Made by a program: the position numbers and the translations under genes
Shown here: positions 3,001-59,800 of the stretch, piece after piece
Layout of the letters: each line of letters starts with the position of its first letter
Position numbering within the stretch: the stretch's first letter is position 1
Notes under the pieces: model-generated
Databases searched by the model: none
Told to the model about the DNA's origin: nothing
What the model saw: only the letters and a program-made list of their open reading frames with translations
From: Hormiphora californensis
Taxonomy: Eukaryota; Animalia; Ctenophora
Length of the DNA stretch: 64,000 bases
Assembly: GCA_020137815.1 (NCBI GenBank)
Contig: CM035361.1
Coordinates: 6,386,001 to 6,450,000 of the forward strand
Reading direction: 5' to 3'

Positions 3001-4688
3001 AGACATATGTCTCATGAGACGTTAGGGTTAGGGTTATGGTTGGGTTTACGATTGGGCTAGGGTTAGGGTTATCCTTTAGGTCTAGAGACCCGTAGGGATA
3101 GGGTTAGGGTTGACCCATAGGTTTGGACCTAGCCCTACCCTCTACGGGTCCCTAGACCTAAAGGAAAGCCCTAACCCTAGCCCAACCCTAAACCCAACCA
3201 TAACCCTAACCCTAACGTCTCATGAGACATATGTCTCATGAGACATGTCTCATGATACACTCATGAGCACATGTAGGTCAAAACGTCTCATGAGCGCTCA
3301 TGAGACATTGAAACAGAGATGGGATGAGACATATGTCTCATGAGCGCTCATGAGCAAGGTCTCATGAGCACTCATGAGCGCTCATGAGACACTCATGATA
3401 CACTCATGATACACTCATGAGCGCTCATGAGACGTTGAAACACCTAAAAACGTCTCATGAGCGCTCATGATACACTCATGATACACTCATGACACACTCA
3501 TGATACACTCATGAGCGCTCATGAGAGGAACGGACAGGTTCTTCCGACTTACCCGATTTCGTATGATCATCATTTCATATTTCAGCGTGGAGTCCAGTGG
3601 TACTTGAAACATACATCCCATTTGATCTGGAGAGCACCCCTCTTCAAATCAAAACCAGCTCTACTACCGGGAGTGGGGAGATGATCTGGGTGAACACATA
3701 CACTGCAGATGAGAGTCTGATTGGGGGGGTGGCGGTGAAGTTCGCCTCAACTATGAACTACTACATCAACTACTGCACCGGATGGACCTCCCTCCCAGTA
3801 CAACCACCAGAGGAAGTGAATCAGATGTGGACAATTCGAAAGACGGCTACTGCCATCAGTATAGAGTGCAACGGGGTGGAGGTACTGAACTACCAGTTCA
3901 GTGACCAGTCCTGTGTATCAAAGTGGGGAGGAGATGTGGAGAAGATACAATTTTACTCCGGGGACACTGCATCTAAGGGCTACAGAGCAAAACCAACAGG
4001 TATAAACTAGAAGCAAATAAATACTGTATTGTTCATGTTGATATCTATCTAATCTAATCTAACTATATCTAATGCATTAATTTGACGGAAATGTGACACC
4101 CTATCGTCAGTGTGACGACGTGATCCGTCATTGTGACGACGTGATCCGTCAGTGTGACGGTGTGCGGACTCTAGTGCTACACTCTAAGTCTAAAGAGGAC
4201 TCTATATCTAAATTTAGATTTAGATAAAGAGTCCAAATAATTCTAAACTCTAGGAGGACTCTTTATCTAAAAAGTCTACACAGGGCGGACTCTTTATCTT
4301 AAAAGTCTAAACAAAGTGGACTCTATACTATATCTACATAAATCTAAATTAGATATAGAGTCCGCCTTTCGCTGCGAACTCGAGATTTCGGCCGTTAGGC
4401 CGGAAACGAGAGTTTGCTCTACCCCTATAAGATACTAATTTACATGATAATGGTGCACAGCCGTTATCAGCAGCAACTAAAATCTCCCAACACCATTTCA
4501 ATCCATTGCAGTGTGTCCCGGGTTTGTTGTAGTCGGTTCTGTGGAAGGAAGTTGGAGCGATACTGATCCCGGACAGACAGTGACCATTGAATGTCAGAAG
4601 AAGTACGTGCGAGATGGTAGCTCTGAGAGGACCTGTAATTCCGACGGAGAGTGGACCATTGATGCCCCACTCTGCAGTAGACAACTAG
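1..4688 (+). CDS. Secreted protein: signal peptide + 3 tandem ~140-aa beta-rich (ctenophore-type) domains + sushi/CCP domain; 5' truncated by the window
   Basis: Exons <1-39 (FSVLLLSTFTATE, identical to the signal exon at 18984), 1267-1695, 1789-2214, 3586-3999 (each phase 1-1, WSPVVL..PFDLESTPLQIKT..WTIRKT..IECNGVEVL..DTAS.SYRAKPT) and 4512-4688 (CPG..VTIEC..ERTC..GEW..PLC, a sushi motif). All introns are GT-AG. The 3' end is unresolved. Confidence 0.8.
187..729. mobile_element. Non-autonomous element whose two termini recur as an internally deleted ~70-80-bp form at ~10015-10093 and ~10163-10233 (opposite strand)
   Basis: TTGGCTCCATTGCAACCTATTCTCGCT... and ...GATCTCACTCAGACATCAATGTGGCCAA match the reverse complement of the short copies at ~10 kb. 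Confidence 0.5.
950..1194. mobile_element. Palindromic MITE, ~80-bp TIRs
   Basis: TTACGGGGGCCCGAAGGAATCGCC... pairs with ...GGCGATTCCTTCGGGCCCCCGTAA. The interior is also hairpin-like and the element is flanked by TA. Confidence 0.8.
2284..3553. mobile_element. Foldback DNA transposon (Merlin-like termini), with TCATGA-rich arms ending in telomere-like TTAGGG tracts
   Basis: Termini are GGTAAGTCGGAAG/CTTCCGACTTACC, with an 8-bp TSD CGATTTCG (2276-2283, 3554-3561). The empty site is visible in the paralogous intron at ~1757-1764. There are two direct ~400-bp arms and one inverted arm. Confidence 0.85.
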
Positions 4689-11580: not shown

Positions 11581-34912
<23,332 letters not shown>

Positions 34913-35853: not shown

Positions 35854-38800
35854 ATGTCTTCAATGTTGACTTGGCTGATTTTGCTGATTAGTATCGGAGA
35901 TGTCTATGCTGGGCTGGGTTACCAATGTGAGTAAAAGAGGATGGGTAGAGGAAATTAACGGTATTTGACCCCGATATACCGGACAAAACCCTTTCCCTGG
36001 AGCATCCCGGTAAATCGGGGTCCGACTTCTACATTGCTTATAGAAATAAAGTCTTGATATTCTATGAAGTTGATAGACTCGTCATTATTATATCATCTAG
36101 CTGGAATTGGAAATAGTGGAAAATGACGGTCTAATTGTTGCCTATAATTGTTAGACCCTCTCTCGCTTTACAAATGGAGGGTTAATACATAACTAATTAC
36201 ATATATACCAATTCAGATCGGTGCGATTATCGGAAGTTTGGTACGGCTGGAGCGAGGTATGCTGAGAAGGACACCTCACAGAGCACCAGCATGTTTCGGA
36301 CGCTTCGGGAGGCCATGGATTCGTGTGATTTGGGTAAGTGCCAAGTCCCTACCAACCAGCCCCTTGCCCCATCTTGTCTCCCACTGTCACCTCTCTCTTA
36401 CCCTCTCTCACTGTCACCTCTCTCTTACCCTCTCCCACTGTCACCTCTCTTACCCTCTCCCACTGTCACCTCTCTCTTACCCTCTCCCACTGTCACCTCT
36501 CTCTTACCCTCTCCCACTGTCACCTCTCTCACCCTCTCCCACTGTCACCTCTCTTACCCTCTCCCACTGTCACCTCTCTTCCTAATATTATGTTAATCCC
36601 ATCTAATCCCATCTGCAGCTCTGTCGTGTAAGGGTGTAACCCAGGATGCATCCCTGGCCTCCACCCTGACCCCCACCAACCTGCCATATACTGCCATGAA
36701 GGGCGAGGTTACAACGGAGGATGCAACGAAATATACTAGCTGGGAAAAGCTGGAGTGCAGTGAGTATTAACTAACTAACTATTATTAGAACGTAAAATGT
36801 GAGCAATGAACTATCGAAAAGATAATTTACAATCGACATTATATCTAACGGCTCTCAAACGAGCAGTTGATTGGAATTTTATCCTTTAATTAACTAATTT
36901 CAACATGTTTCTAATAAGTTAAATATCTTTTAATCACACCACAGACGACGTTGAGGCGTATGGGAACACACGTAAAGTGCTGGGTATGTGGTTACCAGCC
37001 TCAGACAACACATACACACTCCCTACCCAAGCAAAATCTCTACCCGGTGATGCGGTCGTGGTTTCATTCACATATCTGGTAAGTTGAACAACCAATCAGA
37101 ACTCGTTATTTAGGTCACGTGACTGGTTATTAGCCAATCAGGGACCAGTAGTGGTTTCATTCACTTATCTGGTAAGTTAATTGGTAAACCTCGATTTACC
37201 GGCAGCCCCGATATACCGGGCAAAACCTTTACCCCGATGATCTAAGTAAATCGAGGTCCGGCTGTGGGAAAGGATTTCACCGGTATATATCTCGGAGTGA
37301 AATATTATCACAATTCCCTAAATAGGGTAATGTAATATTACATCGGGGGAGATTTTTTCAGGCCAATGCTCTGACCAGTGACCACGGTTCTAACGCACTC
37401 CGCGAGAATAGGGTCAGTCTGACCCTATTCTCGCGGAGTGCTGACCCGGTCAGACCAATGCTCTGACAGATTGTGATTGAACCATGTTCCCTCAGGGAGA
37501 TAAGTCTAAAGCAGAAAAGATAACAATTGAGGGCGGTTCGGGGGTTATAGGTGGGATTAACATTGATAACGCCGAACAATCCCTCACCGTGCTGAGCGGG
37601 ACAAAGGTAAACTCAACACTATCGCTCAATTTCATTACATATTCGTGCAGTTTAACTTCAATGACATGCATTGTTTTGAATTTTCCGCTTCATCAATCAA
37701 TTATTGTCTTCCCCCTGTAGACGCTCTATTATTATTGTTAATTATTGTCTTCCCCCTGTAGACGCTCTATTATTATTGTTAATTATTGTCTTCCCCCTGT
37801 AGACACTCACTGCAAACTGGGTAAACCTAGTGATTGACTCAGAAGTGGCACTTCTGTTTCAACTGGCGGATAAGGCTATTCTGATGACACTGGACGGGTA
37901 TCCTGTCAATACCACGGTGGATTACACTGCGGGAGGGGTGAAGACTGTTAAAACGGAAAATGTGGATGTGGTGAACGTACAGTACCAGGAACAGAGAGGT
38001 AGTTAATTAGTTAAATGATCAATTAGTGATAAATGTAAATTATAGAGTGTTGGTTAGTTGGTGATACTAAGCCGACGCTCTACCAAGCTCTTTGAGCGGT
38101 GTGTGACGCGGTGACTCCCGGAAACTGATTATCCCAATCACTTGCGTGAATGAGAGTGTTTTGAAGGACATGTTCCTCACCCTCTAACATCTTGGATAAT
38201 GTATTAATTAATTGTTATCTTTACACCTTTACCAAACAGATGAGGATTGCTAACATCTTTAACACCTTTAACACCTTTATCAAACATCTTAATATCATTT
38301 AGATGAGGATTGTTGGGATGGGTTATCAAGACAGACATACCTCGGTAAAATGAGCACCACTATCACCGGATCAACTTGCAAAAAGTGGAACGAAATCAAC
38401 GATCAACGAGGTAATTAGCTTTTAGATCTTTGTTGTCATGGCAACAGTTCCTAACAGCAACATAGCAACAGCTCCTAACAACAACATAGCAACAGTCCCT
38501 ATAACAACAATATAGCAAGAGTCCCTGACAACAACATAGCAACTGCAGTCCCTATAACAACAACATAACAACAGTTCCTAACAACAACATAGCAACAGCT
38601 CCTAACAACACCATAGCAACAGCTCCTAACAACACCATAGCAACAGCTCCTAACAACACCATAGCAACAGTTCCTAACAACAACATAGCAACAGTTCCTA
38701 GCAGCAACATAGCAACAGCTCCTATAACAACAACATAGCAACAGTTCCTAACAACAACATAGCAACAGTTCCTAGCAACAACATAGCAACAGTCCCTAAC

Positions 38801-41800
38801 AACAACATAGCAACAGTTCCTAACAGCAACATAGCAACAGTTCCTAACAACAACATAGCAACAGTTCCTAGCAACAACATAGCAACAGCTCCTATAACAA
38901 CAACATAGCAACAGTTCCTAGCAGCAACATAGCAACAGCTCCTATAACAACAACATAGCAACAGTCCCTAACAACAACATAGCAACAGTTCCTAGCAACA
39001 ACATAGCAACAGTCCCTAACAACAACATAGCAACAGTTCCTAACAGCAACATAGCAACAGTTCCTAACAACAACATAGCAACAGTTCCTAGCAACAACAT
39101 AGCAACAGCTCCTATAACAACAACATAGCAACAGTTCCTAGCAACAACATAGCAACAGCTCCTAACAACACCATAGCAACAGTTCCTAGCAGCAACATAA
39201 CAACAGTTCCTAGCAGCAACATAGCAACAGTTCCTAGCAGCAACATAGCAACAGTTCCTAGCAACAACATAGCAACAGTCCCTAACAACAACATAGCAAC
39301 AGTTCCTATAACAACAACATAGCAACAGTTCCTAACAACACCATAGCAACAGCTCCTAACAACAACATAGCAACAGCTCCTAACAACAACATAGCAAGAG
39401 TCCCTAACAACAACATAGCAACAGTTCCTAGCAGCAACATAGCAACAGTTCCTAGCAGCAACATAACAACAGTTCCTAGCAGCAACATAGCAACAGTTCC
39501 TAGCAGCAACATAACAACAGTTCCTAATAACAACATAGCAACAGTCCCTAACAACACCATAGCAACAGTTCCTAGCAGCAACATAACAACAGTTCCTAAC
39601 AACAACATAGCAACAGTCCCTAACAACACCATAGCAACAGTTCCTAGCAGCAACATAGCAACAGTTCCTAGCAGCAACATAGCAACAGTTCCTAGCAGCA
39701 ACATAACAACAGTTCCTAGTAACAACATAGCAACAGTCCCTAACAACACCATAGCAACAGTTCCTAGCAGCAACATAACAACAGTTCCTAGCAGCAACAT
39801 AGCAACAGTTCCTAGCAGCAACATAGCAACAGTTCCTAGCAGCAACATAGCAACAGCTCCTAGCAGCAACATAGCAACTGCAGTCCCTATAACAACATAG
39901 CAACAGCTCCTAGCAGCAACATAGCAAGAGTCCCTAACAACAACATAGCAACAGCAGTCCCTATAACAACACCATAGCAACAGTTCCTAGCAACAACATA
40001 GCAAGAGTCCCTAACAACAACATTCCCCCCCAACTCTAGCACTGGCAGGATGCCGGGAATACTTTGTTGTCATAGCAACAGTCCCTAACAACAACATTCC
40101 CCCAACTCTAGCACTGGCAGGATGCCGAGAATACTTTGACTTCCTTGGAGAACAATATCGAGGAAACTTAGCTGTTACTAAATCTGGTCTAACCTGTCAG
40201 AAGTGGTCTGTTCAAGAACCTCAGACTCACGTCTATACTCCCGAAAAGTAAGGAACCGACCGACACAACAACCAATCAGAACTCGTTATTTAGGTCACGT
40301 GACTGGTTATCAGCCAATCAGGGACCAGTATTTCCTGATTCGATCGGTTCCTAACACACAACCTCCCATCCAGTTATCCCCAGCGTGGTCTCGGTGATCA
40401 CAACTACTGTAGGAATCCTAGTAAAAGCACGTTGCCATGGTGCTATACTACCTCCTCGGGAACTCGCTGGGAATACTGTGACGTTCCAGTGTGCGGTAGG
40501 TTAAGAACTGTTACTAATTGGTTACTAAGGGATTACTAATTGGTTACTAAGGGGTATCAATGACACAATAAATCCCTCAGTTCTAAAAGGAGGATTCTGG
40601 GGTGTTAAGCCAGGTGGTGCTATGATACAGGGTTTGTGGGATTACCAAAATATGTACAGTTATTCAACGATTTATTACAAGTAAGTCTTAATTGTTGTTT
40701 ATATATTACTTTTTCAACGTTTGCCTCTCAAATATAACGTTCTCAACAGCTAAAATAGAACAGGAACTTAAATTCATAAAGCAGATATTTATCGTTTCTG
40801 TACAACAAGCTAATTCAAAAGCCAGCGTAGTAATCAATTGTTACGTTCTAACCCTCCTAACCATATTACAGTCGGACCCCGATTTAGTGACCCCCGATTT
40901 AGTGGCAGGATCCCCCCCCCCCCCCCCCCGAGGATGCCACTAAATCGGGGTCCGACTGTACCTCCTAACCATTTCAATGAGGTATTGCCGTGCACCGGGG
41001 TCGAACAAGTAATTACAAGTAATTACAAGTAATTACCCCCCCCCATTTCAGTATTGACTACAAGAAATCAGTAGACCTATCAGTGGAGCTCCTAACGGCC
41101 GCTTCAGCGACCACGGTCAAGTTCATGATCCCCAGCGCGACAGAAACCACAAAACCTTACATCCAGGATGCTGCCGGGGACAAAACGGTAAGTTTTCTAT
41201 CAGGGGGGGGGGTCAAAAAGGCAAAGTTAATGCTATGATGCCTCATGGTAACCGCTCTTATCAAATTAATGCTATGATGCCTCATGGTAACCATGGTTAC
41301 TATGGTTACCATGGTTACATATATATTTGGTCAGGAGTGCACGAGACTGGCGGGGGAGTTTTCCTTGACTGATGGCACTGCCTTCTTGGGTATTATCAAC
41401 ATTACCAGCACGGGATATGATTGGACAATGAACGGGTACTACTGTGGCCATCACCCCCATCCAGGTACGGTATTACTGTGGCCATCACCCCCATCCAGGT
41501 ACGGTATTACTGTGGCCATCACCCCCATCCAGGTACGGTATTACTGTGGCCATCACCCCCATCCAGGTACGGTATTACTGTGGCCATCACCCCCATCCAG
41601 GTACGGTATTACTGTGGCCATCACCCCCATCCAGGTACGGTATTACTGTGGACATCACCCCCATCCAGGTACTTGCTATGTTCCTCCCTTTACATTTGTA
41701 AACACAGTCTAGCCAGGCAACACAGTCTAGCCATCCAGGTGCAATCAGCTGATATATTACAATCGGACCCCGATCGGAACCTCGATTTACCGGGCAAACA

Positions 41801-44800
41801 CTTCCCCGAGCATCCCGGTAAATCGGGGTCTGACTGTACAATAATAACTTGTGATTATTTTGTATCACATTTGCAGCTCCTAATCATGCTAGTAAACAAA
41901 TACTAGGGGTTCAAAAACTGCAGCTTCTGTAGTCATTACAACAAGAAAGTTGACACGCTTTTCAACCTTTTCAGATTGTTAGCACGGGGAGGTCTAAAAA
42001 AAACCTTTTCAGATCCTTTAGAAGTTGTTCGGCCGACCACTGCGGAACTAAGTACCACATACAAAGACGGTTCGGGTAATGCACTTTACCCTGCTTCCCG
42101 CTGTATAGACAACAATGTGGCGACCTACGGAGAGGCTGATGAGGCTGATCAATCCTCCTGGCTGCTCATGAAGTTCTCCGACACAGATCGCCAAGTTAAA
42201 AAGGTCACTCTGGTTCTATACAGGTAAACAACCAATCATAACTCGTTGTTTAGATCACGTGACTGGTTATCAGCCAATCAGGGACCAGTATTTCAACTGA
42301 TCGCCAAGTTAAAAAGGTCACTCTGATTCTCTTTAGCACTGCTATGGGAGCAACTGAGGATAATGTTAAAATGGTTGCTAAACTGATGACGGATGCAGTG
42401 GTCTATGTGGTAGACAGTGCTGCAAAGAAAACCCAGTGTGGTGTGGTGGAACTAAATACAGATGATACCAGCTCAGCAGGGCAGACATACAGCTGGGCAT
42501 GTACGATAACTGGAACCCATGTCCGTGTGGAGAGCAAGGCAGGGACGTTTGACTGGTTTAACGGGGAAACAAAGTACCACCATGTTCTCGTTGCAGAGTG
42601 TACTGTTTCTGTTGTAAAACTAACTACAGGTAAGCAGCTACTCATTGTAAACACCCAATCAGAACTCGTTGTTTAGATCACGTGACTGGTTATCAGCCAA
42701 TCAGGGACCAGTATTTCCTGATTCGGTCGGTTCCTGGTTATAATTGTCTCAAAAAATACTACCCTCTCAGCTCTGATCTCAAATTGTTATGTTCTAACCC
42801 TCCTTTACATTTGTAAACACGCGCGAAACACAGTCTAGCTAGGCAAATCTCAAAGGGGCATTGTCAATCCGCTCTACAGTACCAATACACATATTATTAA
42901 AGTGTACTAATGCACAAACAAACATTTCCCAGTCCATAAAGAGATAAAAAAGTTCAAAATAACGAAATCATCGTCTACCTATACATCTACTACCTACTTC
43001 AAGGGATTTAACATGAACAAAGGTACATGGTAATTGATAATTAATTAATAATAATTATAATATTCTGAGGTCTCAATGGTTATTAATAGCCGTGACAGCT
43101 GAACCTGTGATTCAGGCACGACTATTCCGGGAATAGTATCCCCCCTCCGCTTGTTGAGTACTCAACAACCCCCCTCCACGGGATGGCAATGCCAGTACGG
43201 CCACAAAAGCTGACGTGTTTTCCTTAATACGTGGTCGATCTGTAATCATAGTTTAATTAAACTGGAAATTAGAACTGCAATGAACTACTGCTAAACCCGT
43301 ACCCTTAATATAGCCACTCAATTATAGAGTCCAGCTCCTAGATCATTAAATTATCAACCATTCAGTGAATTTAAAGCTCAGCTATACATCATCAAATTAT
43401 CAACACCCCACAGACAGCGTTGGTATAGGATCAGTATCCCAGTCAGCCACTGCCAATGATAATACTGCTAGTAAGGCGGTGGACGGTGACCCCGACAGTT
43501 ATAGTGAAACGTCATGTGGTGTTGCTAACCCCTGGCTAAAGGTAACAAACTTTAGTACAGTCAGCTGCTACGATTTATCGGGAGAAAAAATGGATGATTA
43601 AAGTGTATCAGCGAAACAGCAACGAACTGGCTGCGTGCATCGTTGCTCATGTGAATATCTAAGATGAGATCGTTACATGTGTATCGAATGGTCAGTTCGT
43701 TGCTGTTTCGCCTAGAATAACATCAATCACCAAATGTTTTAAAATTCAATTTCAGATTCCATTCGATGGAAAATACAATGTTTGGGGTGTAAGGGTTGTA
43801 AACAGGCTGGACACTCCTACTAACTGGAAAAAGTATGGTCGCTGTCTGTATATAAATAGTGTTAGTAGAGTATACCGGCGGCCTCTAGGGTTGAACAACA
43901 TATGTAAACACGGTGGTTTGTTAACAGTTTCGGCGTCAACGCCTTCTTCAGAACTAAAGAAAATGGTAACTTTACAAAATAAATATATCTCGTTAGATCA
44001 ACTAAATAAATTACTACAACACAACTAAAGACTAAAACGACCACAAGTACTAAAAACGTCTACAACGACCTAAAAATTCTAAAACGACAAATAACTACTA
44101 AAACCAAAAACTAGAGAACTAACTATGAAACGAACACACAGGTCAAAAACGGGTCAAGAAAAGAGAGGGGGAAAGAGAGAGCAAGGGAGGTGCACCCAAA
44201 TATGGTATAACTCACCAGAGGGAAAAACCGGTTATACTAGGTTGGACAGGCTGCAATATAAGTTACAGCTCGCACCCAGTATTAAGGTGGTTAACCATCC
44301 TAGGGGCCACGATAAGAGACGCTGATACCGGAACCCAACACAATATGAATAATAAATAAATAAACGCTAATAAAACCATAAAATCAAGGAGCTAGGGGGT
44401 TAGGGGGGGGGGGGGCGGGGGGACAAGTATGGGTAACTGTCGTTTGTAGTTCAAGTTTGTCATTGAGGGAGGGTGAATGTGATGTGATCAATACTGCCTC
44501 CAGTGCCTTCCTCCGTACTGTTTTCTTCTCAATTCCTAAAATTGTTAGAGAGATATCGGCAGGTTGGGAGGGGTGTACCTGGAGGTAGTGCTGACCCATG
44601 GCGTTGTTAGGGTAGGACGAAGGACGTCCCGCCGCTCGGAGGTGTTCACTCAACCTGTCGTGTATCGGTCGGTAGGTCTCACCAATATAAGTGGCTTCAC
44701 ACTTATTACACAGTAGTTTGTAGACAGCACCTCTGGTGTTGCACCCACCTTTCTCGATCAACGGACAAAGTTTACAATTAACAGGGTTATTCAGACTACA

Positions 44801-47800
44801 CTTAGGCGAGTCTAGTGGCCTCGAAGCAGTGAGGGTTGACCGAAGTGTACGACCTGGTAAGAATACAGGTGTTATGGGTAATTTCTTCTTCTTCAGGTAA
44901 GCACGTACTCGTTTAGTCTCCCCTTCTGTAGTGTACGGGAGGGTCAGTATCGTGTAATTGTCACTGTTGTGCTTACGTGACCCTTTGTTTTTTCCCGTTG
45001 TTGGGGGGTTGGGTTTGTATCCGTTCCTCACAAGTAGGTCATTGACCATCCCAAACGAGTGCTCCAGTTCTTCAGGAGAGGAGGTCTCCTCCGCAGTGCG
45101 ATAGTAGGCCTCGACAACCGCTTGTTTAGTTTTATCCTGGTGGTGGGATCGTTGGTTAAGGGTGATGGACTTGTTGGTGGGTTTGCGGTAGTACCTAGTA
45201 CTCAAATACCCTTCAGATGTAACTTTAATCTCTGTGTCGAGAAAGGGCACCCACTCACCTGGTTGGTTTGGAAAATCAACTTCCCAGGCTATGCGTCCGA
45301 TACACGACAGGTTGAGTGAACACCTCCGAGCGGCGGGACGTCCTTCGTCCTACCCTAACAACGCCATGGGTCAGCACTACCTCCAGGTACACCCCTCCCA
45401 ACCTGCCGATATCTCTCTAACAATTTTAGGAATTGAGAAGAAAACAGTACGGAGGAAGGCACTGGAGGCAGTATTGATCACATCACATTCACCCTCCCTC
45501 AATGACAAACTTGAACTACAAACGACAGTTACCCATACTTGTCCCCCCGCCCCCCCCCCCTAACCCCCTAGCTCCTTGATTTTTTGATTTATTAGCGTTT
45601 AATTATTTATTTATTCTTATTATGTTGGGTTCCGGTATCAGCGTCTCTTTTCGTGGCCCCCAGGATGGTTAACCACTTTAATACTGGGTGCGAGCTGTAA
45701 CATATATTGCAGCCTGGCCAACCTAGGCTAACCGGTTTTTCCCTCTGGTGAGTTATACCATATTTGGGTACACCTCCCTTGCTCTCTCTTTCCCCCTCTC
45801 TTTTCTTGACCCGTTTTTGACCTGTGTGCTCGTTTCATAGTTAGTTCTCTAGTTTTTTGGTTTTAGTAGTTATTTGTCGTTTTAGAATTTTTAGGTCGTT
45901 GTAGACGTTTTTTTTAGTTTTTAGTACTTGTGGTCGTTTTAGTCTTTAGTTGTGTTGCAGTAATTTATTTAGTTGATCTAACGAGATATTTATTTTGTAA
46001 AGTTACCATTTTCTTTAGTTCTGAAGAAGGCGTTGACGCCGAAACTGTTAACAAACCACCGTGTTTACCTATGTTGTTCAACCCTAGAGGCCGCCGGTAT
46101 ACTCTACTAACACTATTTATCTTCATGCGGCTCATAAACATTTGGCCAATCCAATCTTTGTCTGTATATATATATGATTGCTGTCTGTATATATGATTGC
46201 TGTCTGTATATATGATTGCTGTCTGTATATATGATTGCTGTCTGTATATATGATTGCTGTCTGTATATATGATTGCTGTCTGTATGTATGATTGCTGTCT
46301 GTATATATGATTGCTGTCTGTATATATGATTGCTGTCTGTATATATGATCGCTGTCTGTATATATGATCGCTGTCTGTATGTATGATCGCTGTCTGTATG
46401 TATGATCGCTGTCTATATGTATGATCGCTGTCTGTATGATTGCTGTCTGTATGTATGATCGCTGTATGTATATGTTTTACTGTTTAGCCCCATCTGAGCA
46501 CAGCAGGATGGCACAGCGATGATATGTTGGCTCTTTTCCTGTTTAATTAATTCTATTCGACGTATTTCAGATCGGTAGGGTTAGAGGTTGTGTTACAGAG
46601 GGATGGAGTTGAGGTGGATACATGTGGGTCACTCTCCGCTGACGATGTAAAGTACCCGCCTGTTAACACCGACTGGTACACTGTAGCAAGAGATAGGGGT
46701 TTTCTTAACGCTGTGATTGAGGATAACATGGTGAGTTAATTGATCTTTGAACAAGGTCATATTGAGCAGGAACCGACCGACACAAGTAAACAACCAATCA
46801 GAACTCGTTATTTAGGTCACGTGACTGGTTATCATCCAATTCATAGCGCTGGCAAATCCTCCACCGTTTCAGGTTGAGATTAAGACGACAGCGGGAACGA
46901 CAGACGACAATCCGGTGGTTTTTGCCTACATAGATAATTTGAGGGGATCATTTGGAACTTTAACTTTAGGTAAAGGAACTTTTTATTAGATTTATTAGAA
47001 CGCTTGTAAAGGGATTTCTGGTAAAGGATTTATTAGATTTATTAGAATGCTTGAATTCCGTTCTCTCTACTGTGTCATGAAACACGTGAAAACAACTGTG
47101 TCTGATTGTTCGCAATAAAACCCTGCACTTCATATTAGTTAAATCGGGGTCCGACTGTAGTATACTAATATATATCATATCTCTGCAGGGTCCAAGGCAA
47201 CGTTGAGTGGGTGCAGTGGAGAAGGAACCTACGCATCCACTCCCTCCGGGGCCGGTTCTTGGATAATCATAAAATCAGGACTCACAGTCTTCGGATGGTA
47301 CGTGTCACACACGTGTATTTCTACATGTGTAAACATTAATAAATCACTGAGTTATTTTTGTTATGTTGGGAGAATTCCTGCTGGATCAGTATTTATCAAA
47401 CAGGATAGAAACAATCCTTGTGTTTTACTAACACATTCTTTAAATTTTTAATATGCTATCTTGCATTGTTCTGCTTCTGTGCATGGACATGTCAACCTCA
47501 CTGCTTATATATTCAAAATGTGTTAGTAAAACACGATTATTGTTTCTATTCTGTTTTTTACATACTGATTAAACAAGAGTTCTCCCAACATAACAAAAAT
47601 ATCTCAGTGATGGGTGGGTCGATTTTGAGCGGCAAAAACGCAAAATGCTCAGAGAGCTAATCTCTACTACCTACAACAAACTTGTCCGATTCTGATTCGG
47701 TCCACTCTCACTTTAATAAACTAATTGATATAAACCACCTATAACAGGTACAAACTAATTTATAAACCACCTATAACAGGTACAGCGGACAATTTTCCTT

Positions 47801-50800
47801 TACCCTGACAACATCTGGGACGAGTTGCAAGACAAAGTACCATGCCCGGGGTATCAAGTTTACATCAGCCGACAAGGCATCCAGTCAATGGAGAATTAGG
47901 AGTAAGTGACGTGGGGAGACCGGAGAAGTATGGGGTAAAGGCTCATGTTGTAACCATGGTTGTAACTATGGTAACTAGCTGTTCGCTATATATTCTGTAT
48001 CGAGGATGTTGAGATAACGTATTTAATTTTCTGTAGATGGAGGTGGGAACATAGCCCCTCGAGGAACTACAACGAGTTCCGACAGTTCGCCAGAAACACT
48101 GACAGATCTTAATTATAACACGTAAGATAATTAATTGATTACCACTGTGATTTGTGGGGATTGCGTCCTCAGGAGAACTCGACAGGGCAATGAAATTTTC
48201 CTGAAGTACTGTACAATAACAAACACGAGTGTTTTAACAGAAAACAATTGTTTTCTAAAACACTCGTGTTTGTTATTGTAATTAATTGATTAAGTTAATA
48301 AGTGGAGATAATTAATGTTATATGTAGGGCATCACATGTGTGTGTTGAGATGGAACTACTATAGGGCAACTACCACATTTTTGCCATTATATCTTTTTCC
48401 CCGAATTCTGATCTACTCGACCGCTTTCTTTACGTGTTTGAATAACATACTATCTTTCAGAGTCTTCAAATCAAGCAATGGTGGGTGGGCTAAGATCACA
48501 TTTGACACGACTGCCTATATTTTTGGCTTTGGGTTACATGTCAATCGGAATACTGGAGAGGACGCACAGTAAGTTAAAGCTTATTCTATACGATAATGTT
48601 GAAATATACTTTTTACTTAGGATATTGTATTAAATATTATACCAAAACTAATTGAAATTAGTAGGCCGGAAAGGTTGCCCTATGATTTGAGCTACCTTTG
48701 CCACCGTAACATTCACGGGGTACAGACAGGGTATAACCGATGCTTCTTCTGTCTTCAAAAATATATACTGGTGCCAAAGGTAGCTCAAATCATAGGGCAA
48801 CCTTTCCGGCCTACTAATTTCAATTAGTTTTGGTATAATTTGCATCATTTTTGGGATTTTTTATCCATTTAGATGTAGTAGAACAGGTAAGGAGATGATG
48901 GAATCGCGAATTTGCAAAATTTTCATTTTTGACGTCATTTTGACGTCATAAAATGACGTCACGTCGTTATGACGTCATAATGATGACGTCATATCATCGG
49001 GATTACCTAGATGAAGATACTGACCAAGTTTGAGATCAATTGGATGAGATTTGAGTCCGCTATGGCGAAAAAACCCATATCGTCATATCTATTTTTAAAC
49101 AGTCATAACACTTTAGACGCGTTTTAAGACCCTTATACGTCTAGTTTTGAAAATTCGCGGTCTAGTTTCTGAAAGTTCAGACAATTCTCTTTCCATGATA
49201 TACTCTTCGATTTTCGATTAGAATCCGTCTTCAGGGTGTAAATTGAGCTCAAAGAATTTTGTTCAGAGTCTGAAAAATGACGACTTTAAGACGTTTTGTA
49301 GGACGTTCCTGGGGATGATGGAAAACCTCACCCCGCTAATAACACAATAATTGAGTAGATCTACAACCTAGTGAAAACGAGAAGTCTCTATCTCTTTCCG
49401 TTCGTTCAGAACCGTGTTCAAAAAAAGCATCTCTCCTACGCGCGCGCGCGTGTCCGTTACACTGAATCTATAGCAAATGGGACCAGTCTGTAACTTCGGA
49501 CCCAGATGAGATAGAGACTTCAAATTTTCAACATGAGTCAAAGACCCCAAGCCGGGTATTCATTCCAAATTTCAAGTCAAACCGATAAAAGAGAGCCACG
49601 CTATAGCCTTTTGAAATCCGGCTTTTTCAGCCAAACACCCATAAAACGTATAACTGCGTTTCTGGCAGCGCTTTTTTGGGGGGGGGGGGAATGGCAACCT
49701 TTGCGCTTGCCAGCGCAGTGATATGCACTGAACTGCTGTTCAAATTACTGTAGACATTATTACTGTAGACATTATGTATACTTTTTAGGTTCTGGCAAAT
49801 AAATGATTCCGGATAATTTCGGGGTCTGATTGTAATATCGTGTACAATTTAACAGTAATTATATCATCATCAGGATGGCGGGATTACAGATATTGGTAGA
49901 TTCCACCAGTACACCGATTGAGAGCGTTACCAAGGTCGACAACCAACAATACTACTTTTATGGGTAAGAACTGATTGAGAGTGTTACCAAGGTCGACAAC
50001 CAACAATACTACTTTTATGGGTAAGATTAAGGGTACGCTAACCAAAATTTTTTTTCGAGTGCAGGGAAATCTCTCACCGTAGGGTTGTAGGCCATGCCAA
50101 GGAGACCTCAAATATGCAATTTGAGCTCTCAAGTCGAATTCATATTTTTGCTACAGCTGCTTGAAAAATGAACTGAAAATAAGTTTTTGGCATCTCAAAA
50201 ATTTTTTTTCAAAGATAGGAGCATGAAAATTTGGGGATTTGAAGAGGACATGAAGGTGAATAACCACAAAAATTTTTTTTGCAATCCGAGCTGATTTCCG
50301 GTCCTGAGATGGATTTCTTTTTTTCCACTTTAACGCCCTATTTGGCAAAGTTCCGAAAACATGTGAAAGCTGTAAATTGGTGAAAAGTTGCGTCTAACGA
50401 TTATCTAAGTGGCCATAAATTTTGGGCGTGTCCTTATTTGAGATAAGCTGTACGGAGTTTTTTTTGTGAAAGCCGTCATTTCAGAAATACATAAATTCCC
50501 TGTATCTCAAAAACGGCTGATCGTAGAGACCTGAGACTATGCTTAAACGATTCAGAAGGTCCGATTTTGGGGGGGTCTTCTGAGAGACATTTTGCTCCTA
50601 CTTCAACCGTTTTTGCTGTAATTGCGAAAAACAAATTCTATGAAAAGGGCAAAAGCTAAACTCCAATATCCTGTAATTACGGAATTTTAGCTAAGAAAGG
50701 ACCGAAACTATGGAAAAATGTTTAACAAGCTAATTCCTTCACTATTTGGTCCATATGGGTCCCTATAATCATCAAAAACAAAATCACAAAAAATCCACGA

Positions 50801-53800
50801 TGGCGAAGATGGGTTATTGTTTTTCGCAATTACAGCAAAAACGGTTGAAGTAGGAGCAAAATGTCTCTCAGAAGACCCCCCCAAAATCGGACCTTCTGAA
50901 TCGTTTAAGCATAGTCTCAGGTCTCTACGATCAGCCGTTTTTGAGATACAGGGAATTTATTTATTTCTGAAATGACGGCTTTCACAAAAAAAACTCCGTA
51001 CAGCTTATCTCAAATAAGGACACGCCCAAAATTTATGGCCACTTAGATAATCGTTAGACGCAACTTTTCACCAATTTACAGCTTTCACATGTTTTCGGAA
51101 CTTTGCCAAATAGGGCGTTAAAGTGGAAAAAAAGAAATCCATCTCAGGACCGGAAATCAGCTCGGATTGCAAAAAAAAATTTTGTGGTTATTCACCTTCA
51201 TGTCCTCTTCAAATCCCCAAATTTTCATGCTCCTATCTTTGAAAAAAAATTTTTGAGATGCCAAAAACTTATTTTCAGTTCATTTTTCAAGCAGCTGTAG
51301 CAAAAATATGAATTCGACTTGAGAGCTCAAATTGCATATTTGAGGTCTCCTTGGCATGGCCTACAACCCTACGGTGAGAGATTTCCCTGCACTCGAAAAA
51401 TTTTTTTGGTTAGCGTACCCTTAACAACAACCAACAATACTACTTTTATGGGTAAGATTAACAACAACCAACAATACTACTTTTATGGGTAAGATTAACA
51501 ACAACCAACAATACTACTTTTATGGGTAAGATTAACAACAACCAACAATACTACTTTTATGGGTAAGCACGGTGCTCCTGAAGGACGTTCAACCTCGACC
51601 TCGAGCTAAACCATCGGTTGTACGATTAACATTAAATGAAATGTGTATTGTCCATAATCAGCGAATTCAATACACCTGAGAGATATACACGTATATAGAC
51701 CCCGCTGGCTTGAATAGACGCACGGCGCGCTCAAACAATTTGCACTGGTCTATTGGGCCGTGCACTGCCGTGAGTTTGTGTCTCGATAGACGCACGCCCT
51801 CTGACAGATGTGTGTAAAGATCACAAAGAATCACTGAAAACACGATAAAATGACTTGGTAACACAAGAGGGAGTGTGTGTACAACCTACAACGCTCTCTG
51901 TCTAAATTTGGCGCCCGCCAGTCTGTTGCAACTGTTGCTCATGACCCACAATTAACTGTAATCTCTCTCTGCATTCCACCCTTTGAAACTGTTACGACGA
52001 TTGTTACGAGTGTGTAGGAATGTAGAGAGGCACTCTGTAGCTTCATTTCCAACCGTTTGACCCGTTTTGTGTGAGCTCTCTGTGTGTCAACCACCTAACT
52101 TGTGCTTGTTTTGCTTCTAGGTGTCCGCCAGCGGGGTCTATAGAACACAACTCCCTCCCTAACGTGCAGATATACCTGTAAACCCCTCGCTGACGCTCGG
52201 GATTTACAGGGCTGTAACGCACGGGTCCCTTCGGGACCCGTGCATTACAGCTCAATAGACGCACTGCTCTGCAGTGCGTCTATTGAATAGATGCACGCGC
52301 GGGAGGGAGTTATGTACTATATAACTGTGTGTTATCAAAGAAAAGGAACTGATGCATGGTTTCAAACGACAAACGTTGAAGATGTATTACTCGTTCAAGT
52401 GACAGTTACCCGACAGTTTCATTTTTATTTAATTCACTGATTTTCACTTTTATCTCAGGTCGTATGATGCCATTTATGGAAATGAGGTGACAATAAAGCA
52501 GTCCTCATCATCATCAACAGTTTCCCTTACAGAGGTGGAGGTGTACGGGACTTTAGGTGAGAGAAAACAACATTGAATTATCAAAACTTATAATAATCAT
52601 TGATCTTGAACAACATGGTAACCACCATCCATTGTAATAACAACATGATAACAACATGATAACAACATGGTAACCATGGTAACAACATGGTAACCATGGT
52701 AACAACATGGTAACAACATGGTAACAAGATGGTAACCATGGTAACAACATGGTAACAACATGGTAACATCCTGCAGATTGGGCATCCCTGGGGCTTCACG
52801 AGTTTCGATGTTCCAAAGGTGGGGTGGAGGCAGACACAGCAGTTCTAACTCTGAAAGCAACCAATTGCCTCCATTTAGCAGAAGTGATGCCCATTGGATC
52901 TCTGCCAGGTAAATCATCGCCATGGTAACATGGTAACCATAGCAACATGGTAACATGGTAACCATAGCAACATCTCAAACTAGATCTTGGTGTTCAATAA
53001 CTCTTATAATTCTCAGAGCTGGCTGATAGATGTACAATGACAGGAGTTCAGATAGCTGGCACTGACAAGATCTCAAAACAGGATGCAAAACTCCCCTTCG
53101 CAACAGTGTACAACTATGCAGGGTTTTGCTTCGATGAGGAGACCTGTAGCGCAGCCTCAGCATGTAATAACTCCGTCACCATAGCAACTATATTGAGTTA
53201 CCATAGCAACTGTTGAGTCGCCTGAAACTGTATCCACACTAACCACGGTCCTTCCGCAGACGTGGAGTCGGATCAATCGTTGGAAGTATTCAACAAGGCA
53301 TCGGGTGGTGTGCGACAGAAGCACGCAACAAACTACTTTACTCACCTGTACCCAAATCAGGAGATGATCTCTCTTTATTCCCACTGTGTCCTCGAAACTA
53401 AGGGCAGGGTTAACTTGGCAGTTTTTAAACCCGTTACCATGTCTCAAGGTGTCAGTGCGGGAGAGGCAGTAGATAACCTAAGGTAGGGAAGGATCGAATC
53501 ATTCAGTTCAGCGGTATCTAAGCGACAGACTGCTCCTTTATTAAAAATTTCAATGGTGTGTTGTGACGAAATATTGGTGAACTGACGTAACTACGGCAGC
53601 CAAGAAGGAAATCGCGCGGCGCGCACAGCACACACAGAAGACATTAGAAACTTTCAATTCAACTTCCTACCCGCGCGTTCCAGACACGTCATTTTGGTCG
53701 AGGTGTCGTCATAATCATTCATGTTGCTATAGGGACACCTTCTATTTCTACAGAACTTTCTCTCAGATCTCCTGCTATCAGATCACATCAACCCTATTAG

Positions 53801-56800
53801 TTAACCTCATTAGTACCCCTGTCAGTGTCACATTTCTCATCAGCTCAGTGCTCACATGTCTTTGTGACATGTATTCCACACCCATTAAATTATGGGAGTG
53901 TCGAATGGAACTTTGATGGAAAACTCAAAGCCGGGCAACGTAGTACGCTAAACAGCCGGCTTTCTTCTTGGGAGCAGATGTTTAAACTCTGCTGGCAGTT
54001 AGTGATTATTTCGGAACATAATTTAGCAATTCAGTCTCCATAGTTACCGATTTAGTTGCCATGGCAACCATCAAATGTGGGAAAAAGAGGGCCACCCTTG
54101 CTATAAATCAAGGTTATAATGCTTGCCGATATCAAATGCTCCTTTATCAAAAACTCCATACTCCTTTATCAAACTTTATATTGCCAGGACTACATGTGTG
54201 ACGACGGATGCTGCAAAGAAACTCAACAAAGAATGGCTCACGATAGACCTGTTCAAGACTTACCCCATTGGAATGGTCAGAGTATTTAAAAAGGCAGGCG
54301 AGCATATCTTCTTACAGGGTAATTTGCGTCACGTGTTAGTTTTCTACTGAAACAACAAATCCAATTTTAAATCCAGAATATTCAAGATCTATAGGAGGTC
54401 TCCAACTGATGATTGCAGTAGCACACCATTGGTGATTGCAGTACACCAATTACCAGCTGATTGATATCAAAACATCTGTATCTTTATTACAACGAAATAA
54501 TGCAGCTGTATTTAGGACGCTTTATTACTATTTGTATCATCACTCCACATTTACTTGTATCACTTCCATCACTAATTCACATTTCCCAGGTGCAATTGTA
54601 CTAATTGATGGAGAGGAATGTGGAACAGTTGGGACACTCGAGTCCACCTCCTATGCGGATGTCCAGTGCAGCAAGACTCTATGGGGATCCCACGTGGTGA
54701 TCTATCTAACTACCAGTACTGCTGTCACGAAACTGAGTGTCTGTGAGGTGGAGGTTTATGAAGGTATATAATATCACGTGACATGCCCATATATGGTTGT
54801 ATACATTACAATTGCACTATCTCCCACTATGTAGCGTTGGATGTGAATTACTGTAGGGACCCCTCCCAAGAGGGACAACCTTGGTGCTACGTTGAGGGTG
54901 CTGCTGTAAGGGGGACGTGGGAGTTTTGTGCCGTTCCAATGTGCAGTAAGTGGTATCAATTAATATCAGGATATATATCTAATTAAAGTGCGTTTCAAAC
55001 GACTTGACCTGAGATTCCTGGAAATTCAGGATTTCCCCTTTGTAAATACACACGCAATGCGCCAAATTCCAAGAATTACGGGTCAAGTCGCTTGAAACGG
55101 ACTTTAATATCAGATTTCGGGATATGTCTAAATCTATTGAAATCAAGTAGATTTTTATCCTCGAGGTATCGCCCAAGCGGATTTCAAAATTGATTACTTG
55201 CAGATAACCTATAAGCTGCTAAATGTTCTCATTACAGATAACATGCTCCGTGTTACGTATGACTATGCGCCATATGGAGTTGGAAGAAACCTGAAACTCG
55301 TTACCTACACTGACCTGAACCAAGGCCTAGAGGACTGCCTGGGACATTTTGACTCGTGCTCAGGTAGTTACCATAGTTACCATAGTTACCATAGTTATCA
55401 TAGTTATCACTAGTAGGCCTAGAGGACTGCCTGGGACATTTTGACTCGTGCTCAGGTAGTTACCATAGTTACCATAGTTACCATAGTTACCACTAGTAGG
55501 CCTAGAGGACTGCCTGGGACACTTTGACTCGTGCTCAGGTAGTTACCATAGTTACCATAGTTACCATAGTTACCATAGTTACCACTAGTAGGCCTAGAGG
55601 ACTGCCTGGGACATTTTGACTCGTGCTCAGGTAATTACCATAGTTACCATAGTTACCATAGTTACCATAGTTACCATAGTTACCACTAGTAGGCCTAGAG
55701 GACTGCCTGGGACATTTTGACTCGTGCTCAGGTAGTTACCATAGTTACCATAGTTACCATAGTTACCACTAGTAGGCCTAGAGGACTGCCTGGGACATTT
55801 TGACTCGTGCTCAGGTAGTTACCATAGTTACCATAGTTACCATAGTTACCACTAGTAGGCCTAGAGGACTGCCTGGGACATTTTGACTCGTGCTCAGGTA
55901 GTTACCATAGTTACCATAGTTACCATAGTTACCATAGTTACCATAGTTACCACTAGTAGGCCTAGAGGACTGCCTGGGACATTTTGACTCGTGCTCAGGT
56001 AACTCGACATAAAACACATGCTGGGATGGTATAGTGGTGAGATGGTGCTTCGCTCGGTTGGGCGCCATACTGCTACAAGCCTGATCGGTCAACCGCCGCT
56101 GAGGTATTATTCACATTCATCCAAAAAACAACTTTTTACATGGCTACATTCTAGGTGTAGTAGAGAAGCTGGATAGTGCGGATAGTGTTTATAAATCCAT
56201 CTTCAAGGCGAGTGAATTCACAGCTAAGATGACTGGTGTGACTTCAAGTGATACCCCCTATTTTGGAACAGTGGGCTACAAAAAGGGGAGAAACACTCGT
56301 AAGTAACACAAGAACATCATGCATCCTACCACGATTTAGTTCAGCGATCGTATCGTTTAATTCTGCGATCTATTTGAACGTTCAGATATTACCCAAACAT
56401 TACAACAACAAACCCTGTTTTATTAATTAATATACACGACATTATGTTAATTTAATGTTCTATTCAGACGTGGGTCAAGGGTTCCTGGAGGTAGCCCCAC
56501 CCGGCCAGGACTGCAGCACCACCTGCTTGAAACAGAATTCAGAGTGTTATGAGGTGATCCAAGCTAGTATTGAGCTGTGGTATGCCTTTGATGAACAAGG
56601 TAACTGAAATACTGGTCCCTGATTGGCCAGTCAGGGAATACTGGTCCCTGATTGGCTGATCACCAGTCACGTGTTACCTAAATAGCGAGTTCTGATTGGT
56701 TGTTTACTTGTGTCGGATTGAATGCAGTCGACTGAGTGATACCTAATGATATAGAACTGACAGTGCTGAACTGTTGTTGAAGTAAAAATACTTGCTCGAC

Positions 56801-59800
56801 CCTTTACATTATATCTTTAAATCAAATCATTCCCTACAGGTCTCCAATGCAAGTCTCTAGTGGCCCTTTCTGCAAAGACTACTGGGGCCCCTTACTATCG
56901 ATACGCGGATGGCGCCTGTCTGGGGATCTTGGACCACCAGGAATCTTACTCCTGCGCTGATAAAGTTGATGAAGGAGCACGGATCTGCAATTGCAGGGGA
57001 ATAAAATGTAAAGAAACAAACTAACAAACCTTCTAATCTTCTATTCTAATCTTCAAATCTACCAATCAAATACAACGGTGGTCCATAAAGTTTGTTTCAT
57101 GGTGTCTCACGAGGATCATCATCTTAAAATATACTGAAATGTACTGATTTTAACCCCTCTCTAAGTCTAAAGTAACATCCTTCAGTTCGTAAGAGATACG
57201 ATGTATCCCAGCACGAGTTTAAAGTTGACGTCTACAACCCTGAGAGTGAAAGGTATATGATCGATGGAATAATCTCAATTCTAATTAGTTATTCTTATTG
57301 ATCTATCACTGCCTAATTTTTCACTTCAGTTGAAGGATCCTAGAATCCCACTCCCTCACAGGTTTTACCCCCTGAAGAAGCCCATGTTCTGGGGAGACAT
57401 CCTGTACTTGCTGATAGAAGAGGGTCTGGGAACTGACAAAACCAACCGGGTCACTCTGGGAGGCAGGTCTGCTGGGGAGGATGATAATCTCAAGATTGAG
57501 TTTACTAAAAACAAACTCTGGTTGAGGATCGGAGGTAAGATTGCAGGAACCGACCGAATCAGGAAATACTGGTCCCCATGATTGGCTGATAACCAGTCAC
57601 GTGACCTAAATAACGAGTTCTGATTGGTTGTTTACTTGTTTCGGTCGGTTCCTGATCGATATCTTTGACTGTGACAATCTTAGATTGTCACACTAGGTCA
57701 CAGCTTCAAAGATATCGATTTAACAGACACCGAATAACCAACCAACCCTTCTTGTGAAGAGTCGTAAACCAAGGTTTTACAACGAAATTCGCGAAATTGT
57801 TAGACCGAGATGGTCTAATATTGTACTAATTCATTGCAGGTCAGGCAGAGACAGGAAAAACTGGTCCCTGATTGGCTGATAACCAGTCACGTGACCTAAA
57901 TAAGGAGCTCTGATTGGTTGTTTACTAATTCCCTATATCATTTCAGGTCAGGCCGAGACAGTGTGTACTAGCGCCATCTCATGTGAGGATGCTGCAGGTT
58001 GTGGGGTCCTGGTCAGATTCCATTACGGAATGGTGGAACTACTCTACAATGCGTTAGTATAAACTCTAGTACTTTCTATATACTGCAGGGTGTCCCATAT
58101 ATAGTGGAACTACTCTACAACGCGTTAGTATTTGATTTGATTTGATAAGGTTTTAGTTTCCTCTAATGATTCACCCAAAAAGACCCAAAACATTGACATT
58201 TGACTTTATCATGTTGTTTAATTGGAAACTTTTTAAACTATTTGAATTGCTTAACACCACCCTCTCAAGTGAAAAGAAGGGTTACAACTTTTTAACTCAA
58301 TATTACTAAAAATCCTGTAATATTATCATCCTATTTCCCCTCAATATTACTACAAATCCTGTAATATTATCATCCTATTTCCCCTCAATATTACTACAAA
58401 TCCTGTAATATTATCATCCTATTTCCCCTCAATATAACTACCAGCCCCTGGTAATATTATCATCTCCTTTTCAGTGGTCCCGATGCTGCAACATCCTTGA
58501 CGAGGCTGAAGAACTGTACAATTGATTCAGAGTTTCACACAGTATGGAGGAGACTTCAGGACTCACAGTTTGTAAGTTTTAATCTCACAATGTAGCAACA
58601 AACAACGATTAACTGCAGACTCTTTGGGGGGAGGATAAATAAACCGAGGTTTGACTAAACCATAAAAACATGTATAATTCATACAACGAATCGTTTCAGA
58701 TATCATTCAAAGCTAATCAGGAGGGCCATATGAATCTAGTAAGGGCAGCAATAAAAGGTACGGTCTAGATAGATAGAACAGGTACGGTACATTAATTAAT
58801 TTAGAGGTAGTGTTATACACACCCTCGCCGGTGAGCATATCAGAACCGTATTAAAATGTAACAGAGGCATGACTAGATTCACCAAACGGTTTTAAGCCCA
58901 CTACCATTTACTTCTACGTGCTAGGTCACAGGTTCGGGCCTGGACTAGCGCAATGCTACCTAGACCGCCAAGCTATGATTGGTAGAGGCTCTTTTGAGAG
59001 TTTCGCAAAGACGGTGCATATCTAACCAATAAGGTTGCCTGCTTGGGGTGGCGCTCTAGCTACGCTGCAGAGAAATCTGTACCAAAAATGGACCGTCGCT
59101 GAACGCCATTCGTAATAGGAGATCATGGCACCACGGTATCGTTCCGACCCTACTACTTTTACTATAATATAATCCCAACTCTCAATATTATTTCAGCGAG
59201 CTATGATACGAGTCTAATGGCTCTTACACCCTTCGCAACCTCAAATTGGGCAAGCCTTGATTTCAGGTAATAGGCGTACAGTCGGACACTGATTTACCGG
59301 GCAAAACGCTTTCCCCCGAGCATCCCGGTAAATTGGGGTCCAACTGTATTTAATGTTGAATTATTTATTTCAATTTATTTTCTTTTGAAGTATATCATCA
59401 AGACGTGTATCAATATATTCAAAATTTATACCCACCACCAAAACTCTTCAGTGGGAAGTTGTGGTCAACTTCTGGACTTGGAGCCAAGGCCAACGCAACG
59501 GGATACTACTCTCCCTACCAAGCTACCCTGCTACATGATGGGGCACAATGTTAGTAACTTAATATACATGATGGGGCACAATGTTAGTAACTTAATATAC
59601 ATGATGGGGCACAATGTTAGTAACTTAGTATACATGATGGGGCACAATGTTAGTAACTTAGTATACATGATGGGGCACAATGTTAGTAACTTAGTATACA
59701 TGATGGGGCACAATGTTAGTAACTTAATATACATGATGGGGCACAATGTTAGTAACTTAGTATACATGATGGGGCACAATGTTAGTAACTTAATATACAT

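Follow-up and report, generated by a model that had tools for sequence, protein, structure and literature searches.

Natural insertions of one protein domain into another have been catalogued on a large scale. In the accessible part of a survey of CATH-Gene3D, intradomain insertions are counted in 174,872 sequences and 168 parent types, with a median insert of ~120 amino acids (PMC12328240); a kringle may be among those parent types. In laminins, the L4 domain sits between the third and fourth cysteines of an LE domain, and the longest insert named in the accessible text, ~580 residues in alpha3/alpha5, follows a truncated LE, with LF named also (PMC5338690). As a rule, modules of class 1-1 insert into phase-1 introns that already exist, and the accessible text gives FN2 in MMP2 and SEL1L as an example of such shuffling (PMC3927616). 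Kringles have been described as mobile inserted modules; the locus analyzed here suggests that a kringle can also serve as host, to an insert over ten times as large as itself. It lies in a 64,000-nucleotide stretch of the ctenophore Hormiphora californensis (assembly GCA_020137815.1, contig CM035361.1, positions 6,386,001 to 6,450,000, forward strand), hereafter ‘the window’, whose positions are counted from its first letter. A sequence-only reading of the window had picked out two half-kringle exons with 16 kilobases (kb) between them, and their coordinates, phases, and translations are correct. These exons are numbers 6 and 29 of the gene model described below (Table 1), and the domain they appear to form is called kringle 1.

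Two Half-Kringles That Complement Each Other

The two exons cover complementary parts of the Pfam Kringle profile (79 positions), with exon 6 matching positions 7–28 (E 1.2e-3) and exon 29 positions 47–79 (E 1.1e-9), and both match solved kringle structures by sequence. The N-half alone scores 19.6 bits in Pfam Kringle, below the curated cut-off of 34.3. A second profile of 83 positions was built from 51 complete intronless kringles of public metagenome loci, which remained from 119 motif hits in 120 loci after 68 had been excluded for introns, contig edges, or pattern misses. Against this profile, the N-half scores 21.9 bits, the C-half 40.7, and their direct join 48.9, over positions 6–83 of 83. 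The halves contribute two and four cysteines, i.e., all six, and the YxG, GxxCxxW, NYCRxP, PWCY, and WxxC motifs are intact.

The joined halves had been called a canonical six-cysteine kringle. The cysteines and the score agree with this, but the direct join leaves only 16 residues between the second and third cysteines, compared to 21–35 in 50 of the 51 comparison kringles and 14 in the remaining one, so that ‘canonical’ is slightly too strong. In the full model, 1,019 residues run from Cys246 to Cys1266, and a contiguous chain of ~80 residues with a loop of 21–35 is not found. Judged from sequence, the Cys2-Cys3 loop is elastic in other kringles, ranging from 14 to 35 residues and reaching 66 in a giant-virus sequence. 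The lower extreme is a complete intronless metagenome kringle (L167); the upper is a kringle-like sequence in an 808-residue frame (L246 and L251, viral contigs; L133, metagenome). In metagenome and viral loci, which are short, 116 frames bear kringles, and none of them showed a large split kringle.

Each half had been described as lacking an adjacent partner, and an overlooked partner exon would have undone the observation. Five motif scans and a tblastn search in all six frames of the window located two N-halves (38338 and 40156), two C-halves (40402 and 54846), and no third copy of either. The remaining pair makes up a normal kringle (kringle 2). Since just two N-halves and two C-halves exist, missed partner exons are ruled out within the window. 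A complex prediction on the two halves of kringle 1 scored 0.19 against a mark of 0.34, which gives no answer and is not evidence.

One Open Frame Across the Insert

We placed 38 exons by hand on the + strand, from 35854 to 58757, joined by introns that all have GT-AG ends (37/37) and encoding a single stop-free frame of 1,653 residues. The insert comprises 22 exons (7–28) and 1,003 residues (257–1259), and 16,424 bases separate the halves of kringle 1. The frame is open both with and without the insert, whose boundaries are of class 1-1. Phase-1 introns account for 21 of the 37 and include both insert boundaries and the module boundaries within the insert. Scored with a matrix trained on the remaining sites of the model, the four boundary sites outscore most decoys: 99.6% for the exon 6 donor, 86.9% for the exon 7 acceptor, 96.0% for the exon 28 donor, and 91.4% for the exon 29 acceptor. 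The N-terminus in exon 1 was called signal-like by its hydrophobicity; neither a stop codon nor a membrane-spanning segment was seen up to residue 1,744 of an extended model. The product is likely a secreted protein, predicted from sequence to have at least 1,650 residues.

Could the arrangement be an assembly error, or two interleaved genes, either with the 5′ and 3′ parts belonging to different genes or with the insert as a separate gene inside a kringle intron? Intron 6 is nearly all minisatellite (1.6 kb), a typical site for a misjoin. However, the C-half is just 71 bases away from lectin-like exon 28, across a sequence that occurs nowhere else in the window; because the C-half stands directly behind that exon, a misjoin in intron 6 would only change the upstream N-half, and the split would remain. 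The insert also lacks a signal-bearing first exon of its own, and the phases fit at both ends. Intron 6 holds only two short ATG frames, neither of them signal-like, which rules out an internal first exon there. In a same-species contig set, only an intronic repeat piece was found within 36600–38430 and nothing at 52980–55320, which is evidence for neither side. We regard an assembly or gene-interleaving origin as improbable.

Homologue searches were run with single short exons, which are weak queries; they returned one paralog of F1, the first F5/8C-like domain of the insert, and four short relatives of exon 33, with nothing for the other queries and no full-length ortholog. The F1 paralog, P0001 of Pleurobrachia bachei, is 58% identical to F1 and spans the exon 12-13 junction; it shares repeat-derived peptides with the window. 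Exon 33 had no match in an Atlas search. It belongs to an eight-cysteine module at 56468–57007, one of whose four short homologues faintly matches the C-terminus of Glyco_transf_18 (E 0.069).

The model has some local latitude. A possible extra exon at 41877–41928 and a longer exon 12 (41975–42012), separated by a 46-nucleotide intron, would add 30 residues in frame; the acceptors are strong and the donor is weak. The insert would have 1,033 residues if the small exon were used. At 39997–40138, 41435–41672, 49916–50026, 51421–51567, and 55323–56001, exon ends and their splice sites have been copied jointly into tandem arrays; these lie in introns 6, 11, 22, and 30 and create additional donor or acceptor sites.

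A Nested Insertion as the Favored Explanation

On balance, we lean toward a single gene in which exon shuffling brought a constitutive nested insertion into a phase-1 intron of the kringle domain, whose halves would refold around it. The earlier reading had offered a looped-out multidomain insert, a skippable cassette, or two interleaved genes. The first fits best because the frame is continuous, the ends are of class 1-1, the cysteines and motifs are intact, and a second apparent nesting inside cannot be skipped cleanly, while two interleaved genes are disfavored.

The proposed sequence of events would start from an ancestral kringle with a phase-1 intron in its Cys2-Cys3 loop; a block of class 1-1 modules would then have been shuffled into that intron. 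In the usual kringle, the cysteines pair 1-6, 2-4, and 3-5, and halves refolding around the 1,003-residue insert would form the disulfides Cys224-Cys1296 and Cys246-Cys1277 across it. These two bonds would staple the ends of the insert, and the chain would exit and re-enter through a long Cys2-Cys3 loop. The N- and C-ends lie close together in kringle, PAN, F5/8C, and galectin folds; therefore, the chain of modules could return to its start. The result would be a compact cluster of lectin-fold modules, closed by covalent bonds and carried on an extracellular scaffold; its most likely role would be multivalent binding, whether in mucus, in matrix, or in surface recognition. The event was likely repeated one level down: F2, the second F5/8C-like domain, would host 256 residues made up of a galectin-fold module and an entire F5/8C-like domain.

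If this is true, exon shuffling into intradomain phase-1 introns can build doubly nested proteins in comb jellies. Annotation pipelines would miss such split domains, the N-half being under the Pfam cut-off. The locus would also offer a natural test of how the halves of a disulfide-held domain meet across 1,000 residues, and the kringle Cys2-Cys3 loop would become a candidate insertion site for protein design.

Modules of the Insert

The insert likely carries about eight domains, one of which, of F5/8C-like type, also appears to be split (Table 1); about seven had been counted previously. Every insert module has an even number of cysteines.

Table 1. Features of the hand-built gene model, in window coordinates; aa, amino acid residues of the model.
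Feature	Coordinates	Strand	Remarks
Exon 1, N-terminus with start codon, signal-peptide-like, aa 1-24	35854..35926	+	Highest hydrophobicity of any 19-residue window in the model
Exons 2-3, module with four cysteines in PAN-like spacing	36217..36759	+	No PAN match in Pfam
Exons 4-5, short beta-rich module, possibly galectin-like	36945..37998	+	z 2.85 against the window’s galectin-fold module; 3/300 shuffles reach the score
Exon 6, kringle 1 N-half, aa 221-256, Cys224 and Cys246	38303..38410	+	Phase 1-1; AG/GT ends
Intron 6, phase 1, 1,701 nucleotides, mostly 24-nucleotide minisatellite	38411..40111	+	Bounds the insert on its 5′ side
Exons 7-8, kringle 2 (complete), aa 257-342, with a phase-2 intron inside	40112..40495	+	89 bits, kringle profile
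Exons 9-11, beta-rich module, galectin-like by eye, aa 343-464	40581..41464	+	May continue into 41877-41928
Exons 12-13, F1, jelly-roll, F5/8C-like by motifs, aa 465-632	42013..42629	+	
Exons 14, 15, and start of 16, N-part of F2, F-type-lectin-like, aa 633-734, Cys667 and Cys719	43414..46671	+	
Remainder of exon 16 through exon 19, galectin-fold module apparently nested in F2, aa 735-863	46672..47901	+	
Exons 20-23, F3, complete F5/8C-like domain apparently nested in F2, aa 864-990	48037..52556	+	Weak F-type profile pieces
Exon 24, likely C-part of F2, aa 991-1034, Cys1002 and Cys1021	52777..52908	+	Phase 1-1
Exons 25-26, module with four cysteines in PAN-like spacing, joined to the start of F4	53017..53482	+	No Pfam match
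Exons 27-28, rest of F4, F-type-lectin-like, aa 1129-1259	54188..54763	+	
Intron 28, phase 1, 71 nucleotides, unique within the window	54764..54834	+	Bounds the insert on its 3′ side
Exon 29, kringle 1 C-half, aa 1260-1296, Cys1266, 1277, 1291, and 1296	54835..54945	+	Phase 1-1; AG/GT ends
Exons 30-38, two-cysteine PAN-like, eight-cysteine, and beta-rich modules	55238..58757	+	Frame still open
Three less certain exons	58877..59549	+	Frame open to 1,744 aa

Four F5/8C domains had been assigned to the insert. Two of them, F2 and F4, are supported by sequence comparison, F3 is so weakly, F1 is supported as a jelly-roll only, and F2 is apparently split. The N-part of F2 is the best match of an F-type-lectin profile built from 121 bacterial segments (22.8 bits, positions 21–93 of 174), against which F4 scores 3.3 bits over positions 20–159, F3 gives a weak match, and F1 none. 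For F4, exon 28 matches the eel lectin 1K12 (E 0.0085) and PF22633 (E 0.017). The folded F1 paralog is a low-confidence jelly-roll, with a predicted local distance difference test (pLDDT) score of 53; its best match is a phage protein (Z 9.2), and neuropilin b1b2 reaches Z 7.4. A family search for F-type loci by plasmid handle returned none.

Among the galectin-like and PAN-like labels assigned earlier, the second galectin-like module (aa 735-863) has indirect support, whereas no tool supports the first or the PAN-like modules. The second aligns end to end with a single-exon module of the window’s 5′ gene (z 4.65, 2/300 shuffles), and that module folds like galectins (Z 11.6, root-mean-square deviation 3.0, 122 aligned), so that a galectin fold is indirectly predicted for aa 735-863 as well. 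Compared to the same single-exon module, aa 343-464 gives z 1.3, which is not significant. The four-cysteine modules are presumably PAN-like, from their cysteine spacing; single exons have no PAN/apple match in Pfam, and the three PAN-like candidates do not match one another.

The 140-residue galectin-fold module of the 5′ gene is a mobile ctenophore module. It is present as four single-exon, phase 1-1 copies (1266–1694, 1788–2213, 3585–3998, and 19255–19680), which are 82–85% identical to the first, have no Pfam match, and adjoin exons that are sushi-like by eye.

The fucose-binding motif H-x26-R-x-D-x4-R/K is absent from the model, including all four F5/8C-like copies, the galactoside-binding motifs HxNxR and WxxExR have no match in it, and the acidic lysine-binding kringle motif is absent from it as well. 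Thus, the insert modules are lectin-like folds, not proven lectins.

A Probable Second Level of Nesting

F2 breaks off after its third quarter, and exon 24 is probably its missing C-part, which would make F2 a split domain with two cysteines on each side of an inner insert. A profile of the F-type C-terminus was built from the 33 of 121 segments that passed a last-strand filter. The four best of 35 scored exons are 23, 24, 28, and 13, i.e., three intact domain ends and exon 24. Exon 23 (F3) ranks first and exon 24 second (2/35), the latter with 12.2 bits and with 0/1000 shuffles reaching its score. The last-strand motif occurs in four places of the model, in exons 23, 24, 28, and 13. In the Atlas search, the leads for exon 24 stand at 0.87, below 0.9, and one is an F5/8C cluster with 41% of its members labelled.

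The inner insert, of 256 residues, consists of the galectin-fold module and F3. It starts within exon 16, at 46672, with neither an intron nor a GT donor; because its start has no splice donor, it is not removable by a clean skip. This bears on a rival explanation in which the 22-exon block is optional: splicing 38410 to 54835 would give a short-loop kringle, inclusion would give a lectin-like arm, and the gene would act as a splicing switch. The skip from exon 6 to exon 29 is in frame and stop-free, a 16-residue join is possible, since one of the 51 kringles has a 14-residue loop, and selection on the skipped form would account for both halves staying intact. However, intron 6 shows no pairing longer than 16 bases with the rest of the insert (E at best 1.3), and none of the top pairings involves intron 28. 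Just 71 bases separate the exon 28 donor, which outscores 96% of decoys, from the C-half acceptor, and with an inner F2 insert that cannot be skipped cleanly, the gene likely tolerates constitutive nesting. We consider the switch unlikely.

Does Kringle 1 Close?

Several points weigh against the nested insertion we favor. The model was built by hand with exons picked so that the frame stays open, and the exon 12-13 junction is the only one with outside support, from the paralog. The second nesting depends on a single profile test, in which the alignment covers 13 residues and the training rows were chosen by the last-strand motif. Exon 24 was not detected by Pfam, PDB, a profile of the four intact F5/8C-like copies (−1.6 bits), or pairwise tests, where it ranks 18th of 34 exons. 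The outer insert is ~8 times the median natural insert of ~120 residues given in the accessible part of the survey (PMC12328240), and during folding the N-half would have to wait ~1,000 residues for the C-half. The insertion may also be recent, in which case the kept cysteines would not reflect selection.

These last points lead to a further rival, in which the long protein is made but the halves stay unpaired, either as relics of a recently broken kringle or with each half closing its own disulfides. Each half has an even number of cysteines (two and four), the insert is far above the usual sizes reported in that survey, and the single-exon searches found no full-length ortholog to show long-term conservation. 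Against this, the core kringle motifs are undecayed in both halves, the insert modules are far diverged from each other and from the paralog (58%), and an intron has probably disappeared from the inner nesting. The divergence and intron loss suggest an old block, although they do not date the outer insertion. Unpaired halves appear quite doubtful to us.

Beyond refolding, we tentatively raise the possibility, itself on the doubtful side, that kringle 1 is a covalent clasp closing a disulfide-locked ring of eight modules, with a second split domain inside. If so, the clasp could also serve as a switch or a polymer link, through skipping of the 22 exons or pairing of halves between chains. An animal extracellular protein would then carry a natural domain insertion of unusual size and double nesting, in a host domain that the accessible literature describes only as a mobile insert.

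Other Features of the Window

Intron 15 (43847–46125) contains a large imperfect palindrome with arms that are 91–100% complementary. By eye, a frame at 45192–45560 in this intron resembles the final portion of a GIY-YIG endonuclease of Penelope type, and a presumed hammerhead-like core lies near 46020–46050. Intron 22 (50027–51424) has inverted arms of 608 nucleotides, 99% complementary, amid tandem copies of the exon 22 end. A separate upstream gene on the + strand, at about 22200–29914 with a stop near 29914, is presumably DD3-3-like, judging by its motifs.

Comparison with Known Systems

In a literature search that left out most subscription journals, no paper was found on a split, half, interrupted, discontinuous, or incomplete kringle; ctenophore combined with kringle gave unrelated papers only, and F-type lectin with insertion and kringle gave none. 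The word kringle is absent from the accessible parts of PMC11797021 and bioRxiv 10.64898/2026.02.02.702917. The accessible part of PMC6278862 offers general background only, on tentacle-cell genes of the secreted lectin type.

Kringle 1 resembles the Kringle family PF00051 (plasminogen, HGF, apolipoprotein(a)) in its six cysteines, its core motifs, and its matches to profiles and solved kringles. It differs in the 1,003-residue insert between the second and third cysteines and in lacking ~10 of the usual loop residues, and its internal phase-1 intron lies at a different site from the phase-2 intron of kringle 2. The F5/8C-like copies F2 and F4 match F-type lectins (1K12, PF22633) by profile or PDB sequence, but all four copies lack the fucose-binding motif, and F2 is apparently split.

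The phase-1 boundaries at the insert ends and between modules are those of class 1-1 exon shuffling. In the accessible text on such shuffling, the kringle is the mobile module, whereas here it would be the recipient, opened at an intradomain intron (PMC3927616). As in the CATH-Gene3D insertions, as far as the available part of the survey describes them, a domain is found in two parts around other domains, and the present case differs in size and depth (PMC12328240). The nearest extracellular likeness, within the accessible text, is laminin L4 in LE, where a carbohydrate-binding-like beta-sandwich sits in a small extracellular disulfide module with bonds crossing the insert (PMC5338690); here, the host is a kringle, and its insert, with 1,003 residues in about eight domains, probably contains one further nesting.

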